Notes under the pieces: model-generated
What the model saw: only the letters and a program-made list of their open reading frames with translations
What the model was told of the DNA's origin: nothing
Databases searched by the model: none
NCBI GenBank assembly: GCA_016180645.1
Contig: JACPAV010000008.1
Coordinates: 1 to 64,000, forward strand
Direction: 5' to 3'
Length of the DNA stretch: 64,000 bases
DNA from: Nitrospirota bacterium
Lineage (GTDB): Bacteria; JACPQY01
Made by a program: the position numbers and the translations under genes
In this document: positions 4,100-43,977 of the stretch, piece by piece
Layout: each line of letters starts with the position of its first letter
Position numbering within the stretch: the first letter of the stretch is position 1

Positions 4100-6257
4100 C
4101 GGCGGCTTCGCGGACGCGCTCCACGGTGATGACGTCCGGCAGTTTCTCAATCGCCCGGATGACGGTGTGGAGCTGATCCGAATCGGACACCATCAATTCG
4201 AAAATCTGCACGGCCTTGCTGTCCTGCGTGGTGTAGATCCGGGCGGAGAGAATGTTCGTCTTGGTCTTGGAAATCACCTTGCTTACCTTGGCCAGGAGAC
4301 CGATGCGATCGGAAGAAAAGACTTTCACCTTCACGGGCATCGCGTTCCGCTCCTTGACATCCCACTTCACATCCACCCGGCGCTCCGGATCGTGCTTGAG
4401 GGCGTTCGCGCACGACGCGGAGTGGATGCTCACGCCCTTGCCGTAGACCATATATCCCACGATGGCCTCACCCGGCAGCGGGTCGCAGCACCGGCCGAAA
4501 TGAACGAGAACGTCCGACTTTCCTTCGACCTTCACCACGCCCGGTGAACGCCCCATCGCCCTCATGAAGATCGTTTGGATGGGGCTGATGATCTTCTGCG
4601 TGAGGTCCCGCTTCACCTCCACGTTGGGAACGACCCGGTCCGCCACCTCCCCTGCGCTGACCTTGCCGAATCCGATCTTCTGATAGAGCCTCTCGATCTG
4701 GCCCGTTTTGAGTTCCGCCAGGAGGCCCGTCAAGGCGCCGTTGTTCATGACTTGATCCAGAGTCAGCTCCCGCTTGAGCAGCTCTTTCTCCAGCAACTCC
4801 TTCCCCAAACCTTCGCTCTTGGTCCTTTCCTCCCGTTTGACCCACCGCCGGATATGGCTCCGAGCCCGCGCGGTGACCACGAAATCGAGCCACTCCTTCA
4901 ACGGCATCTGCTCGGCATTCGTGATGATCTCGACCGAATCGCCGTCGTTCAGCTCGTGCGAGAGCGACACGAGCCGGCCGTTCACCTTCGCGCCCACGCA
5001 GTGGCTTCCAAGATTGGAGTGGACGCTGTAGGCAAAATCGAGGGGCGTGGCGCCTTTGGGAAATTGCCGGATATCTCCCTTCGGAGTAAAGACAAAAATA
5101 TCGTCTGCATAAAGATCTACGCGCAACGTATCCAGGAACTCATTAGGATCTTGGATGGACTTCTGCCATTCGATCAGCCGCCGGAGCCACGAGAAAGCCT
5201 CGTCCTCTTTGCTCAGGTCGTACCGCCCCTCCCGGTACCGCCAGTGCGCTGCGATCCCCTCCTCGGCCACCCAGTGCATGTCCTTCGTCCGGATTTGAAC
5301 CTCCATCCGCACGCCGGCCGGACCGATCACGGAGGTGTGGAGCGATTGGTACAGATTCGCCTTCGGGAGCGCCAAATAGTCCTTGAATCGGCCGGGGATG
5401 GGTGTGTACAGCGAATGCACCAGTCCCAGCGCCTGATAGCATTGGTTCACATTCTGCGTGATGATCCTGAACCCCAGGATGTCGTACAGCTGCTCGAAAT
5501 CGAGCCCTTCCTCGTCCATCTTTCTCTGAATGCTGTAGACGTTCTTCATTCTGGACTGGAACTCATGTTCGATGCTCATCTCACGCAGCTTCACCGACAC
5601 CGTCTCGGCCACCTGGGAAAAGAGCGCTTCGTGCTGGTCCTTCAGCTTCTTCAGCTTCAGGCTGATGTTTTTGTACGGCTCGGGCTTGAGGGCCTTGAAG
5701 CAGAGGTCCTCCAACTCGCGCCGAATCCAGTCCACTCCCAGCCGATGCGCCAGCGGGGCGTAGATGTCCGTCGTCTCCACGGCGATCTTCTCTCGACGTT
5801 CGGTCGGGAGAGCGTCGAGCGTGCGCATGTTGTGGAGCCGGTCCGCCAGCTTGATGAGAAGAACGCGATAGTCCCGCGCGATGTGGAGGATCATTTTCCG
5901 GAAGTTTTCGGCCTGTTTCTCCTCCTTGCTCTTGAAGTCGATGCGGTTCAGTTTGGTGAGGCTCTCCACCATGTTGAAGATTCGCCGCCCGAACTGTTGC
6001 TCAATCTGTTCGGGCGTGGTGGGGGTGTCCTCCAGCGTATCGTGGAGGAGCGCCGCGGTGATGGACTCCGGGTCCATCTTCATCTGCGTCAGGATGTGCG
6101 CGGTTTCGACGAGATGATTCAAATACGGTTCGCCGGAAACGCGAACTTGCCCCTTGTGGGCGCGGGAGGCGAAGACAAACCCCTCCTTGACGGTATCCAG
6201 CTGGTCCGGGGTGTACCGCTGGTCGAGGCCTTGGAGGATGTCGCTAAATCGTGCCAC
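4089..6257 (-). CDS. spoT: Bifunctional (p)ppGpp synthetase/hydrolase (RelA/SpoT)
   Basis: HD motif (ALLHDTLED), [12 protein letters not shown], synthetase YQSLHT/EVQIRT, TGS and ACT domains. Confidence 0.95.
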
Positions 6258-6517: not shown

Positions 6518-7123
6518 TCATTTCCCGGACCGGACGGACCCAACGCGTTGCCGCTCGGCTGCGACGATGCTCCGCAAGGCATCGACCGTTTCGTGGATGT
6601 CGTTGTTCGTCACGCGGTAATCATACCTCTTTGCGCGGAGAAGTTCATCTCGCGCCACCCTCAGTCGTTTTCGAACCTCCTTTTCCGGCAGGGCGCCCCG
6701 ATTCCGAAGCCGATGCTCAAGCTCCCTCATCGAGGGCGGGAACATGAAAATCAGAACCGTGGAGGGATCACGGCGCTTCAGCGCTCGCCCCCCCTTCACG
6801 TCGATCACACACACGACGTCCTTCCCTTTCTTCCAAATCCGCTTCACTTCACCCATGGGAGTGCCGTAGAAGAAGCCGAAGACTTTCTTCCACTCGATGA
6901 ATGCGCCGCGCCGCGCCTCGGACCGGAACCGGGCGGGTGTCACATACTCATAGTCCCGCCCGATCCTCTCGCCCGGACGCGGCCCCCGGGTGGTCCACGA
7001 GACACTCCGCGCCAACCGCGGGTCTTTCCGCAGAAGCCGGCTCACCACCGTGCTCTTCCCCGTTCCCGAGGGCGCCGAGACCACAAAGATCAGACCCCTT
7101 CCGCGAGGCATCGGCCTCCTCAT
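6518..7123 (-). CDS. gmk: Guanylate kinase
   Basis: SAPSGTGKST P-loop, SWTTRGPRPGE..GRDY, FYGTP. Confidence 0.95.
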   Translation of the reverse strand: MRRPMPRGRGLIFVVSAPSGTGKSTVVSRLLRKDPRLARSVSWTTRGPRPGERIGRDYEYVTPARFRSEARRGAFIEWKKVFGFFYGTPMGEVKRIWKKGKDVVCVIDVKGGRALKRRDPSTVLIFMFPPSMRELEHRLRNRGALPEKEVRKRLRVARDELLRAKRYDYRVTNNDIHETVDALRSIVAAERQRVGSVRSGK

Positions 7124-7533
7124 TTCAACTCACCGAAGTGACGCAGCACGTCCAAGGACTTCCCGCCGATGCCCGGGACGCGGTCGATATCGCCCCACGT
7201 GAGAGGCCGGCCCAACGCTTCGCGAAGGTCCACGATCCGCGATGCCGCGGGCCCGTCGATTCCAGGGAGGGCGGACAGATCGTCGCGCCCCGCCGATCGG
7301 AGATCCATTTTCATGAAGAAGAGAAGGCCCCGAACCGGCTGGATCGGGCTCACGTCGAGACGGGTGCCTACCGGGACGACCGCTGGTTTTCCCGTCGAGT
7401 TCATTTCGGCCCAATCGCCGCCCGCGGCTTCGGAAACAACCGCGACGGCTGCGTGGGATGCCAAGGCGCTGCTCGCGGCCTGGATGAGGATTCCCATCCC
7501 GGCCAAGGCCGCCAACACGCTGTTCCGATCCAC
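7120..7533 (-). CDS. ComEA-like helix-hairpin-helix protein
   Basis: N-terminal hydrophobic segment; two HhH motifs (LPGIDG, RVPGIGGK). Confidence 0.7.
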   Translation of the reverse strand: MDRNSVLAALAGMGILIQAASSALASHAAVAVVSEAAGGDWAEMNSTGKPAVVPVGTRLDVSPIQPVRGLLFFMKMDLRSAGRDDLSALPGIDGPAASRIVDLREALGRPLTWGDIDRVPGIGGKSLDVLRHFGELK

Positions 7534-9392: not shown

Positions 9393-10082
9393 ATGGCCAA
9401 GAAAGCCGTGGTGCTGTTAAGCGGCGGTGTGGATTCGGCCACGACGCTCGCCGTGGCCAAGGGGAAAAACTACCTTCCCTACGCGCTGACGTTCGACTAC
9501 GGACAGCGCCACGCCGTGGAGATTGAAGCGGCCAGGAAGGTGGCGGCGGCGATGGGCGCGGTGGAACATCTCGTGGTGAAGTTCGATCTCAGGGGCATCG
9601 GCGGCTCGGCGCTCACGGCGGATATCCCCGTTCCGAAGAATCGCGACGACAAGACGATCCGCTCCGGCATCCCGGTCACCTACGTCCCCGCCCGGAATAC
9701 GATTTTTCTCTCCGTGGCTCTGGGCTGGGCGGAAACGCTCGGTGCGCGCGACATCTTTATCGGAGTCAATGCTCTGGACTACAGCGGCTACCCCGATTGC
9801 CGCGCGGAATTCGTCCGCCAGTTCGAAAGCCTCGCCGCCGTGGCCACGAAGGCCGGCGTAGAGGGGGCCATCTTTCGCGTCCATGCGCCGCTCATCGAGC
9901 TTTCCAAGGCTGAGATCATCCGCCGCGGAAGCGGGCTCGGCGTCGATTTCTCGCTCACTCACAGTTGCTACGACCCTGCCCCGACCGGCGCCGCCTGTGG
10001 GGCCTGCGACTCCTGCATCCTCCGGCGAAAGGGCTTCGAGGAAGCGGGCCTGCCGGATCCGGCGTGGGGATCACTCCGGTAG
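9393..10082 (+). CDS. queC: 7-cyano-7-deazaguanine synthase
   Basis: [34 protein letters not shown]...CGACDSC. Confidence 0.96.
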
Positions 10083-10132
10083 CCGCAGGCTTTAGCCTGC
10101 GCTTGAAGACGCAGCCTAAAGACTGCGCCTAC
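10079..10132. repeat. GTAG-REP doublet, family 2; supplies the queC stop codon
   Basis: GTAGCCGCAGGCTTTAGCCTGCG...CGCAGCCTAAAGACTGCGCCTAC. Confidence 0.85.
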
Positions 10133-10160
10133 CGAGGCAAGCGATGCAGGGGGTAGCGGG

Positions 10161-10907
10161 GTGAAAATCAGCGAGATCTTCGCCTCCATCCAGGGCGAAG
10201 GAAAACTGGCCGGCAAGCCGTCCGTCTTCGTTCGAACCAGCTTCTGCAACCTCCGCTGCCGGTGGTGCGACACCCCCTACACAAGCTGGGAGCCCGAATT
10301 CGTGACCCGTGACACGTCTCTCGTGCTCCAAGAGGTCCTGGACCTGTGCCGAACGAAGGGCATTCGCCACGCGGTCATCACCGGTGGAGAGCCCTTCCTC
10401 CAAGCCCACGATCTCGCCTCGATCAGTTCCGATCTAAGGCATGAGGGAATCCATGTAACCATCGAGACTAACGGTACTATATTCTATCCAGCTCAAGCCG
10501 ACTTGTTCTCAGTCAGTCCGAAGCTCCGCGGCTCCGTGCCCCAGCCGCCATCATCATCGAACGGCGATTCCGCACCCATCCATTGGCATGATCGTCTCCG
10601 GCTCAACGCGGATGCGCTTAAGATGTTTATCGCTCACGCAGGCGCAAATGGAGCTTCGACGCTCGAATTGACCAACCGGATCCAATTCAAGTTCGTGGTG
10701 GAGGCCGACCGTGATCTGGATGAAATCGATTTTCTCTCCCGCACACTTCCCATTGATCCGCGGCTTATCCTCCTGATGCCGCAGGTCACAACCCAACCCG
10801 ACATCGAGATCGCCTATACCCATGTCCGGCGCATGTGCGAACGTTCGGGGTACGGCTTCTCGCCGCGCCTGCACATCGAGAGATTCGGGAACGTCCGCGC
10901 CCACTGA
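10161..10907 (+). CDS. queE: 7-carboxy-7-deazaguanine synthase (radical SAM)
   Basis: EIFASIQGEG, FVRTSFCNLRCRWCDTPY, ITGGEP, IETNGT, SPRLH. Confidence 0.93.
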   Translation: MKISEIFASIQGEGKLAGKPSVFVRTSFCNLRCRWCDTPYTSWEPEFVTRDTSLVLQEVLDLCRTKGIRHAVITGGEPFLQAHDLASISSDLRHEGIHVTIETNGTIFYPAQADLFSVSPKLRGSVPQPPSSSNGDSAPIHWHDRLRLNADALKMFIAHAGANGASTLELTNRIQFKFVVEADRDLDEIDFLSRTLPIDPRLILLMPQVTTQPDIEIAYTHVRRMCERSGYGFSPRLHIERFGNVRAH

Positions 10908-42197: not shown

Positions 42198-42412
42198 GGA
42201 GAGGTGGCCGACCAGCCATGGACGGCGCGGCACTTGCCGACTCAGGTCGAGCAGGATAGCGAGACAAGAGCAACGGCAAGTGGCGGAGCGAGGCCAAGTA
42301 ATTTGGGAGAGGTGGCCGAGCGGCCAGCCACGGAAGGTGCGGCACCTGCCGCAAGAAAGCCGAGCGTGACGCGAGGCAGTGCCAACGGCAGGTCAGCGAG
42401 GCCGGGTAAATT
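42198..42412 (+). repeat. Two tandem units (108 and 107 nt), each starting with the tRNA-Ser 5' end
   Basis: GGAGAGGTGGCCGA at 42198, 42306 and 42413 (the tRNA itself); homologous structured bodies. Confidence 0.85.
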
Positions 42413-42501
42413 GGAGAGGTGGCCGAGCGGTCGAAGGCAGCCGCCTGCTAAGCGGCTGGGCTGAGAAATCGGTCCCGTGGGTTCAAATCCCACCCTCTCC
42501 G
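42413..42501 (+). tRNA. tRNA-Ser(GCT)
   Basis: GGAGAGG/CCTCTCC acceptor stem, anticodon arm GCCGC-CTGCTAA-GCGGC, long variable arm, GGTTCAAATCC T-arm; CCA not encoded. Confidence 0.93.
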
Positions 42502-42622
42502 TACATGGATGTACGGCCCTTGAAGATGCCGGGAGGGTCAGGGCGACCCGGAAGGCTGCGGAAAGGGCCGCGGAAGTGAACCGAAATGCGGGAATGCAAT
42601 CCGTTGAATCCCTCCCTCTCCG
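42502..42622 (+). repeat. GGA-rich tRNA 3'-linked unit ending in a near-duplicate tRNA 3' end
   Basis: Ends GAATCCCTCCCTCTCCG versus tRNA AAATCCCACCCTCTCCG. Confidence 0.75.
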
Positions 42623-42627
42623 ACTCC

Positions 42628-42657
42628 TTGACCCTTTCCCCTTGGGCAGGTTAGACT
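42628..42657 (+). promoter_or_regulatory. Putative sigma70 promoter for the rSAM gene
   Basis: TTGACC-N18-TAGACT, 10 nt before GTG 42668. Confidence 0.45.
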
Positions 42658-42667
42658 ACCCATACCC

Positions 42668-43798
42668 GTGAGGGAAACAGAGACCGTCAATCGAGAGAAC
42701 TCCGTTCTCGCCAAGGTGCGGCGGACCGTCTTCGAGAAGTGTATTCCGATCAACGCCACGCTCGAAATCACTCTCCGTTGCAACCTCCGCTGCCACCACT
42801 GCTACAACTTCGACCGCGCGGAACCGTATTCCGCCCATCGCGCGGGGTTTGAGCTTGCCACCGCGGAAATCTTCAGAATCATCGACGAATTGGCGGAAGC
42901 AGGCACACTCTATCTCAATCTCACGGGTGGTGAAGCCACGCTCCGCCCTGATCTCATGGACATCATTCGTCGGGCACGGCAGCGACACATGATGGTCAAG
43001 ATCAAGTCCAACGGACTCAGGCTCGACCCGTCGAGGGCTCGGGACATAGCCTCGGCTGGGGCGTACGGGGCAGACATCAGCCTGTATGGCTTCAGCGAGG
43101 CCACCTACGCATCCTTCACCCGGACTCCCGGCTCTTTCCGCCGCGCTCTGTTGGGGATTGGGGCAGCGCGAGAGGCGGGACTCCGCGTCCATCTTTCCAT
43201 ATGTATCCTCCGAACGAATCTGCACGAAATCGAAACGATGGCAGACTATGCCAAGTCCCAGGGACTTCCTTACAGCCTCGATCCCCAGATCACCGCGCGA
43301 TACGACGGCACCAAGAATTCCTCGGATCTCCGGGTGGACGCCGCCACCCTCGCATCGTTGTACCGCGGCATCCTCCGCGAAACCGTCACGATTCCCAATT
43401 CACCCCCACACCTGCCCCCCCAATGCTCCTGCGCCCGCTCCACGTGCGGCATTACGGCTTTCGGAGAGGTCTACCCGTGTATTGGAGCACCGCTGGCCGC
43501 GGGCAACCTCCGGGAAAGCAGCTTTGCCGACATCTGGGCTCACTCCCCGGTGCTGCAACGGATTCGTGGCCTGACCTTGGAAGATTTCCCGACCTGCAAG
43601 CCCTGCTCCTACCGCGCGCAGTGTCGCAGAAGCTCAGGCGCCGTCTACTCCATTACCGGCGATTACACCGGAGCAGAGGATTGGACGTGCATGGAGGCCG
43701 AGATCCTGCACACGATAGCGCGCGAAACCCCGGGGAACCCGGCTCCATCCGCATCGCCGCAAGGTTCGGTCCGCCGGTTTTCCGTGGAATTGAACTGA
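42668..43798 (+). CDS. Radical SAM/SPASM domain protein, putative peptide maturase
   Basis: CNLRCHHC, LTGGEA, SPASM-like CSCARSTCGITAFGEVYPC...GNLRESSFADIW...CKPCSYRAQC. Confidence 0.9.
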   Translation: MRETETVNRENSVLAKVRRTVFEKCIPINATLEITLRCNLRCHHCYNFDRAEPYSAHRAGFELATAEIFRIIDELAEAGTLYLNLTGGEATLRPDLMDIIRRARQRHMMVKIKSNGLRLDPSRARDIASAGAYGADISLYGFSEATYASFTRTPGSFRRALLGIGAAREAGLRVHLSICILRTNLHEIETMADYAKSQGLPYSLDPQITARYDGTKNSSDLRVDAATLASLYRGILRETVTIPNSPPHLPPQCSCARSTCGITAFGEVYPCIGAPLAAGNLRESSFADIWAHSPVLQRIRGLTLEDFPTCKPCSYRAQCRRSSGAVYSITGDYTGAEDWTCMEAEILHTIARETPGNPAPSASPQGSVRRFSVELN

Positions 43799-43812
43799 GG
43801 GAGGTACCGCTC

Positions 43813-43977
43813 ATGGCAAATGAAAAGCGTTCGGAAGACGGCCCACGGCCGCCCAAGATACCCTACGAGACGCCCCGCATCCAAAGCGAAACGATTTTCG
43901 AGACCCAATCGCTCGTCACCTGCGGAAAAGTCAGCAGCGATCCCGGGTGCGTGACGGACGGTTTCCTCGACAGCTGA
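43813..43977 (+). CDS. Putative RiPP precursor peptide, 54 aa
   Basis: SD GGGAGG; MANEKRSEDGPRPPKIPYETPRIQSETIFETQSLVTCGKVSSDPGCVTDGFLDS; YxxP leader motif; two Cys in the C-terminal part. Confidence 0.75.
   Translation: MANEKRSEDGPRPPKIPYETPRIQSETIFETQSLVTCGKVSSDPGCVTDGFLDS

Follow-up and report, generated by a model that had tools for sequence, protein, structure and literature searches.

The window, the whole 64,000-nucleotide stretch of DNA analysed here, carries a radical SAM/SPASM enzyme gene followed by a 54-aa open reading frame (ORF), and we consider it highly probable that the two form a genuine precursor-enzyme pair. The adjacent enzyme is likely the maturase of the peptide, and the pair probably acts with partners encoded in trans. 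As judged from sequence comparison, the peptide family is conserved and is unnamed in the libraries and papers that we searched. The pair appears to represent a widespread RiPP-like system: 31 of 401 genomes sampled across bacteria matched a profile of 125 enzymes at E ≤ 1e-60, as did 13 of 201 genomes from the phylum of G042, and a profile search for the peptide recovered 471 representatives at E ≤ 1e-3 among 1.84 billion.

The enzyme gene occupies positions 42668-43798 of the forward strand, starts with GTG and encodes 376 aa in which PF04055 and PF13186 both score over their cut-offs. The peptide gene (43813-43977, +) begins with ATG at 43813, 14 nt past the enzyme stop, and is preceded by the Shine-Dalgarno sequence GGGAGG at 43799-43804 (+) with an 8-nt spacer; the first-pass annotation had described both the short ORF and this site, and both are present. 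As it had also remarked, the peptide is missing from the ORF track, because it is the tail of a 258-aa ORF that starts at 43201 in the same frame and masks it. With a codon model of the genome, the peptide frame scored +5.4 and the remaining five between -3.0 and -19.8. GC3 was 0.72 in the peptide ORF and 0.73 in the enzyme gene, and GGAGG is found upstream of 341 of the 4037 called genes in the genome. By codon score, GC3, rarity of the Shine-Dalgarno sequence and the HMM match given below, the 54-aa ORF is more than a chance reading frame.

A sigma-70-like promoter match, TTGACC-18-TAGACT (42628-42657, +; a match to consensus only), ends 10 nt before the enzyme GTG, so that a nearly leaderless mRNA would result; two such matches were found in 2 kb where 0.4 were expected. 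We looked for a terminator-like site and a significant RNA fold downstream of the peptide and found neither, and tRNA was the sole Rfam match over the gathering score. The neighbouring genes encode a CDF transporter, a small membrane protein and a GMC oxidoreductase. None of these is a RiPP partner, and their domains agree with the earlier remark that RRE, protease and transporter are not adjacent to the pair. Upstream of the enzyme lies tRNA-Ser(GCT) (42412-42502). Within 42198-42622, two degenerate copies of its 5′ end precede it with a spacing of 107-108 nt, and a 16-nt copy of its 3′ end lies 121 nt beyond it; these copies just before the enzyme gene can be read as decayed remnants of tandem tRNA units or as the scar of an old integration.

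When the peptide alone served as query, a word-based homologue search recovered nothing but the peptide itself, and a profile search was needed to find relatives. tblastn of the peptide against its own genome identified two paralogues, on contigs C11 and C23, and further family peptides were found at the loci of radical SAM homologues. An HMM was built from 146 representatives, with the listed peptides of the own genome excluded, and searched against 83,774 ORF tails. It matched the window peptide with E 8e-8, compared with E 1.8 for the best reversed-sequence control, in a test that is not fully independent because the source profile of the representatives included the peptides of this genome. 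Exactly four family peptides were detected in the genome (C23, C25, C11 and C44; E 7e-11 to 8e-8), the next match had E 1.2, and a further search agreed with this count. The proposal that a precursor-like peptide is conserved beside radical SAM homologues is thus borne out, both by the 471 representatives and by the peptides at orthologue loci. Pfam and NCBIfam hold no model for the window peptide or for ten relatives, and the ESM Atlas returned 54-57-aa clusters without names at 0.91 and no usable family.

The peptide has a leader motif, YxxPxI followed by IFET, at residues 18-31 (43864-43905, +), recognized from its sequence, its likeness to the leader consensus of linear polyphosphorylated peptides (LPPs) and the structural model. 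This segment is predicted to bind an RRE and to be recognized by a peptidase. By analogy with LPPs we infer that the leader is cut after Thr31, which would leave a predicted 23-aa core of residues 32-54 (43906-43974, +) with C37, C46 and a terminal S54; the CGK-x6-C motif reported in the first-pass annotation reads as written and comprises C37 and C46. The calculated mass of the unmodified peptide is 5911.8 Da (monoisotopic), and that of the predicted core, taken as unmodified, is 2314.0 Da. In an alignment of 29 peptides, Y18, P21, C37 and C46 are invariant and S54 is nearly so.

We compiled family statistics from the best 149 of the 471 representatives, after one 1945-aa repeat protein had been removed from 150. 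The C-terminal residue is Ser in 122 and Thr in 18 (140 of 149 together), two Cys are present in 98 and three in 49 (147 of 149 have two or three), the first Cys lies 17-19 residues past the Tyr in 140, exactly 7 residues follow the last Cys in 103, and YxxP..FE occurs, as in the window peptide, in 69, all of these shares being inflated because the representatives came via the seed profile. No feature of the family is better conserved than the terminal Ser/Thr, which the earlier annotation had overlooked. The two Cys are separated by a highly variable loop, a conserved acceptor residue is absent from the core, and a Ser near the core start, unlike the terminal Ser/Thr, is not conserved among relatives. 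The peptides of C44, C11, C23 and the sister genome G001 have one extra residue before the first Cys, giving the spacing [AS]LV[STA]CGK, which among the 149 representatives is seen only in the two from this genome. In the family peptides of L102 and L103, the core between the Cys is long and rich in Ser, Gly and aromatic residues.

Two other readings of the precursor were rejected. In lasso peptides of the paeninodin type the macrolactam is formed with an Asp/Glu at core position 7-9. No acidic core residue is conserved here, Asp falls at position 6 when Thr36 is taken as -2, and no lasso cyclase was seen in those close-clade loci whose genes were listed. The LxxC-like segment was considered as a lipoprotein signal and rejected for want of a hydrophobic stretch.

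The enzyme carries a CxxxCxxC radical SAM motif (C38, C42 and C45; 42779-42802, +) that is kept in 125 of 125 sequences of alignment A2. It lacks a fused RRE, its structure was predicted with a pLDDT of 93.8, and a free RRE is predicted to dock on its N-terminal helix. The cut-off of every NCBIfam model was missed: the best scores were those of AhbD (138.4, cut-off 500) and MftC (TIGR03962; 137.5, cut-off 265), and further scores were those of NirJ (111, cut-off 515), ScmE (104.5, cut-off 400), PqqE (96, cut-off 381), AhbC (91.4, cut-off 650) and ScmF (82.7, cut-off 400). The top Foldseek matches were PqqE (6c8v) and SkfB (6efn) at 21-23% identity. Scoring of 7998 candidates gave 532 enzyme homologues at E ≤ 1e-30. 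In a quick IQ-TREE of 105 rows, midpoint-rooted, with long branches and with SH-aLRT as its only support measure, a branch with support of 99 split 71 family rows, chosen with the family's own profile, from 17 AhbD-like and 17 ScmE/F-like rows. An AhbD-like gene of the same genome (contig C5, 314 bits) joined AhbD in this tree, apart from the window enzyme. A grouping with AhbD or NirJ had been raised earlier as a possible objection; it was not seen, as judged from the separate AhbD-like branch and, for NirJ, from score only. The enzyme also falls outside MftC by cut-off and outside the SynChlorMet enzymes ScmE/F by cut-offs and clade.

The SPASM domain (43424-43690, +) contains seven conserved Cys: C253, C255, C271, C310, C313, C319 and C341. 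In the 125 close homologues the first six are invariant and C341 is kept in 121. The CxxCxxxxxC-RRSSG tail with Ser in place of a Cys, noted previously, is present (C310, C313 and C319), and the replaced Cys corresponds to residue 322 (43631-43633, +), which the alignment of homologues identifies as Ser, Asn or Thr in all 125. All 36 of the remoter family rows have Cys at position 322, and 1 of them has Cys at position 255. The first-pass annotation had taken the Ser to suggest an open coordination site. The Ser is real, but Ser alone makes no extra open site: the Cys count stays at seven, as in relatives, because the clade that lost Cys322 gained Cys255. Read from these alignments, Ser322 is one half of a clade-wide ligand swap in which a CxC was gained and the crossover Cys lost. 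An open AuxI site is nevertheless plausible because seven Cys serve two clusters. In CteB, seven Cys serve two clusters and the open AuxI is bound by a substrate Cys, and non-Cys ligands such as Ser are also known (PMC6231123). Seven SPASM Cys are likewise found in AhbD-like decarboxylases. Both SPASM types adjoin the same peptide types, with one of each at locus L028, which suggests similar chemistry. The strict swap offers a natural experiment on AuxI ligation versus chemistry. Family enzymes at L044-L046, L068 and L076 have lost at least one AuxII Cys, suggesting from their sequences Twitch-like reduced forms.

We then examined 8-20 kb around 11 of 13 and 18 further of 35 enzyme-profile matches, together with L002-L004, L024 and L028. 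The 12 long loci of the closest clade, 11 of them from one phylum, encode the peptide in 12, an RRE in 12, a kinase in 12, an NTP_transf_5 protein in 10 and an S24/S26 peptidase in 10, as counted with partner HMMs that were partly trained on the same loci and with examples confirmed by Pfam. In 22 other family loci, the corresponding counts were 9 (peptide), 18 (RRE), 16 (kinase), 9 (NTP_transf_5) and 10 (S24/S26). The peptide lies within 1.5 kb of the enzyme at 16 of 43 family loci and at 0 of 23 short control loci (0/14 AhbD-like and 0/9 ScmE-like). In place of the DD of lasso kinases (DD motif: PMC9266682), the kinases of the family have DE. At L028, a PRMT-like methyltransferase gene (9567-10694) follows the peptide in a cassette with two radical SAM genes and is a possible extra tailoring step. 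At L001, a repeat of ~150 nt (5597-5746 and 7097-7247) lies on both sides of the orthologous enzyme gene.

In the genome of the window, the corresponding parts are scattered over five contigs. The first-pass annotation had left the choice between partners in trans and a minimal system; trans candidates were found, and the system is not minimal, because an RRE, a kinase, a nucleotidyltransferase and an S24/S26 peptidase are all present, dispersed. Genome-wide, PqqD genes comprise C31:99260, two on contig C25 and one fused gene, and discrete RREs with PF05402 over its cut-off lie in trans on C31 and C25. An RRE-fused radical SAM protein of 847 aa (G000:C14:2269-4812) is unrelated to the peptide family. 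The C31 RRE heads a run of genes for an XrtA-like ATPase, an HD protein and a Wza-like exporter, followed by an S24-like gene at C31:104608, 5 kb from the RRE, which is the only S24-like match in the genome. Its product scores 29.6 with PF00717 (cut-off 23.3) and 29.5 with TIGR02228, below the cut-off of 51.85, and shows motifs with Ser, His and Asp that resemble the ones LppS requires (PMC13381572). An orphan HPrK-like kinase at C46:22270, which has only weak P-loop matches in Pfam, was found with a custom HMM and a tree, where it groups with the cassette kinases (support 95) and the kinases of lasso loci form a separate branch (support 100). The only PF14907 (NTP_transf_5) gene is C25:129218.

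The NTP_transf_5 gene lies in a lasso-like locus, C25:129218-148160 (L018 and L019), with four asparagine-synthetase-like genes, three kinases, a B2 protein, two RREs and an ABC exporter. This locus holds an inserted second family enzyme, 28% identical to the window enzyme, and the contig C25 family peptide has three Cys and no terminal Ser; the matching locus of G001 is without the enzyme/peptide insert. In G001, which is 84% complete, the orthologous enzyme is 57% identical and the single family peptide is on another contig, no peptide being called in the 153 nt from the enzyme to the contig end. Enzyme and peptide are split in the same way in G285. Within G001, the S24 gene is absent from the syntenic place and was not found with the C31 query, an RRE search gave only the lasso-type RRE with a contig break where a C31-type RRE would lie, and only a lasso-type kinase was found.

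The enzyme was modelled together with the C31 RRE, residues 10-54 of the peptide and three 4Fe-4S clusters. The complex scored 0.88, compared with 0.03 for the best control and 0.03 when the RRE was replaced. Of 157 solved complexes 116 attained the score mark, as did 2 of 215 mismatched pairs, a calibration that holds only roughly because custom alignments and a ligand were used. Model runs agreed in at least 35% of contacts, with partner pLDDT of at least 89. The modelled interface joins enzyme residues 12-28, 76-81 and 107-109 to RRE residues 11-36, and the interface lists include peptide residues 24-29, peptide C46 and enzyme residues 253-254. The score supports predicted binding of enzyme, RRE and peptide. 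It may also reflect likeness of the model to solved RRE-enzyme pairs of the PqqD-PqqE type, and close RRE cousins such as that on contig C25 could pass the same test.

The mechanism that we favour, with moderate confidence, combines a Cys thioether with phosphorylation of the terminal Ser in the predicted product. In the model, the RRE C31:99260 would hold the YxxP leader and dock on the N-terminal helix of the enzyme. A core Cys, possibly C46, would bind the open AuxI iron and then be joined to a carbon radical. The kinase C46:22270 would phosphorylate the terminal Ser, as in paeninodin, the NTP_transf_5 protein C25:129218 may add a nucleotide or sugar to the Ser phosphate, as in pseudomycoidin, and the S24/S26 peptidase C31:104608 would remove the leader by a cut after FET, in the manner of LppS. 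The sister precursors of C11 and C23 are likely substrates of the same enzyme. Several observations weigh against this scheme: the core lacks a conserved acceptor residue, seven SPASM Cys are shared with AhbD-like decarboxylases, only 9 of the 22 more distant family loci show the peptide, G001 has no S24 gene at the syntenic place and yielded only a lasso-type RRE, and the family kinases have DE in place of DD.

The same pair might instead perform other chemistry, either an MftC-like decarboxylation or cross-link of the terminal Ser/Thr or formation of a C-C or C-O bond, with the Cys forming a disulfide; we regard this as possible and clearly less likely than the thioether. AhbD and MftC are the nearest NCBIfam models, MftC decarboxylates a peptide C-terminus (PMC10114670), and the terminal Ser/Thr stands at a fixed distance from the last Cys in 103 of 149 peptides with a variable loop between the Cys. 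Both scores are, however, far under their cut-offs, the kinase at 12 of 12 close loci already accounts for the terminal Ser, and peptide C46 and enzyme residues 253-254 are both listed in the modelled interface. We judge it improbable that the working partners come from the lasso/radical SAM locus on contig C25, in place of the RRE and peptidase of C31 or the orphan kinase at C46:22270. Contig C25 has the only nucleotidyltransferase and lacks none of the parts, with two RREs, three kinases, an ABC exporter and a B2 protease, and G001 yielded only the lasso-type RRE and kinase. Against this, C25 owns a separate radical SAM enzyme with a three-Cys peptide, the lasso kinases stand a branch with support of 100 apart from the C46 kinase and the cassette kinases, and the C31 RRE passes the complex test.

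Dispersal of the parts over five contigs, together with the failure of S24 and Peptidase_C25 queries to find a match in G001, would also fit the decaying, non-functional relic of a cassette broken up in this lineage. We consider that very unlikely: all examined ORFs are intact with full Cys sets, the peptide gene has a strong Shine-Dalgarno sequence, genome-like codon use and three motif-conserving paralogues, and the 84%-complete G001 keeps both enzyme and peptide. It is scarcely credible that the enzyme is a heme or cofactor enzyme (AhbC/D or NirJ) with a chance ORF behind it. The top NCBIfam matches do bear AhbC/D- and NirJ-type names, but with scores of 138, 131 and 111 against cut-offs of at least 500; the genome has a separate AhbD-like gene on C5, which joins AhbD in the tree apart from the window enzyme, and the peptide is at none of the 14 AhbD-like loci.

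The sister peptides point to the cell envelope. On C23 the peptide gene overlaps the stop of a gene for a 1.6-k-aa secreted protein, on C11 it precedes genes for proteins of 703, 1864 and 4397 aa, and in G001 it follows a gene for a 2.2-k-aa protein; all three lie near HD-domain and Wzc-like genes. In a kin-biased sample of 25 peptide loci, an ORF of at least 900 aa was found within 5 kb at 16 (compared with 1097 of 3877 genes in the own genome) and within 300 nt at 10 (compared with 220 of 3877). The C11 peptide (L021) has a promoter-like TTGACA-17-TTTACT site upstream of 77515, read by eye, and appears from its gene order to head a giant-protein operon. The HD-domain plus Wzc-like module recurs at least five times in the genome (C11, C23 twice, C25 and C47), often beside giant secreted proteins, and occurs in G001 as a tandem pair. 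Peptidase_C25 domains were detected in 5 of 6 giants tested from other cassettes and, in the own genome, in giants on contig C47 and on contig C31, where the giant is 14 kb away from the RRE. A Peptidase_C25 domain shared by the giants beside the genome's own peptides was considered and rejected: the C23, C11 and G001 giants match PPC, fn3, Ig-like or beta-propeller domains only. The query search found no Peptidase_C25 protease in G001. At their ends, the giants of L002-L004, L078, L080 and L083 show a Gly/Cys motif, a hydrophobic stretch and basic residues, an arrangement like that of a C-terminal sorting signal, which may resemble MYXO-CTERM-type signals.

The mature peptide likely acts at the cell surface. 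A far more tentative idea, which we hold to be doubtful, is that the modified peptide is a covalent adapter, linked through its nucleotidylated phospho-Ser to exopolysaccharide and through its freed N-terminus to giant proteins. The N-terminus released by the S24/S26 peptidase would serve as acceptor for a giant Peptidase_C25 transpeptidase of the PorU/gingipain type. PorU, which belongs to the family of gingipains, has been described as a sortase-like transpeptidase that couples proteins to a linking sugar bearing a seryl group (PMC7468200); it is the analogy behind the adapter and not evidence for it. If true, this would be RiPP-based protein-to-polysaccharide anchoring in Gram-negative bacteria. 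It would explain why precursors are found within or next to operons for giant proteins, close to Wzc-like, HD-domain and XrtA-type ATPase genes, and would leave the enzyme genes free to sit anywhere, and it predicts that the exchange of the Cys for CxC moves the open iron of AuxI to another site.

Among described pathways, the closest is that of the LPPs (LppA/K/B/S/D/N) of Paenibacillus alginolyticus (Popov, 2026; PMC13381572). LPP precursors have the leader YxxPxVLxHQxIxFETxxS, an SpI-like peptidase cuts after FET, and an HprK kinase and an NTP transferase are encoded at capsule loci; the products are linear, come mostly from Bacillota and from clustered genes, and are phosphorylated on core Ser3, and the same source states that the biological role of the module is unknown (PMC13381572). 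[quoted passage not shown] The likeness is less clear for the YxxP...FET leader, since the window peptide has YxxPxI and IFET, lacks HQ and is two residues shorter from Tyr to FET, and for the signal-peptidase-like protease, for which C31:104608 is the candidate in trans. The system differs in having a radical SAM/SPASM enzyme, two conserved Cys, a conserved terminal Ser and dispersed genes. LPPs are defined as linear products without a ring-forming enzyme, whereas here a radical SAM/SPASM enzyme adjoins a peptide with conserved Cys. The main text of the LPP paper contains neither 'radical' nor 'rSAM', and the co-occurrence matrix in its supplement lists Radical_SAM and Peptidase_C25 among 834 columns (PMC13381572), so some outlier LPP loci may be of the kind found in the window.

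In paeninodin and pseudomycoidin, a kinase acts on the C-terminal Ser and hexosylation depends on PsmN (PMC9266682). The present system shares with them the YxxP leader, the RRE, the C-terminal Ser with a kinase and a nucleotidyltransferase-like enzyme, but no lasso cyclase is tied to the peptide and no ring Asp/Glu is conserved; a radical SAM enzyme and Cys are present instead. Like the thioether-forming SPASM/Twitch enzymes of the CteB/SkfB/AlbA type (PMC6231123), the window enzyme has seven Cys for two clusters, a Cys-containing candidate substrate and a predicted RRE dependence, so that the combination expected of sactipeptides and ranthipeptides, a radical SAM/SPASM enzyme with seven auxiliary Cys and a Cys-containing precursor, is present. 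It shares only 18-23% identity with them and differs by a separate RRE, AuxI ligands of C-x-C plus one and Ser at the crossover Cys. SynChlorMet (TIGR04248-TIGR04251), compared by model names and scores, likewise brings together a PqqD-like protein, the kinase-like ScmC and radical SAM/SPASM enzymes, but ScmE/F stay under their cut-offs here and lie on the other side of the branch with support of 99, and the peptide is within 1.5 kb at 0 of 9 ScmE-like loci.

We found no description of the peptide family in the literature searched, to which most subscription journals and bioRxiv supplements did not belong. What appears new from sequence and modelling is that several precursors occur in a dispersed layout, that the ligand swap extends across the clade, and that an RRE in trans is modelled with the enzyme. 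Dispersed copies of this kind would escape neighbourhood-based mining, and the genome of the window provides a compact test set of one enzyme and three sister precursors, with a single candidate for each of RRE, kinase, peptidase and nucleotidyltransferase. The system works like LPP or paeninodin with an added radical SAM step and belongs to neither, joining their kinase-peptidase-nucleotidyltransferase module to radical SAM chemistry.
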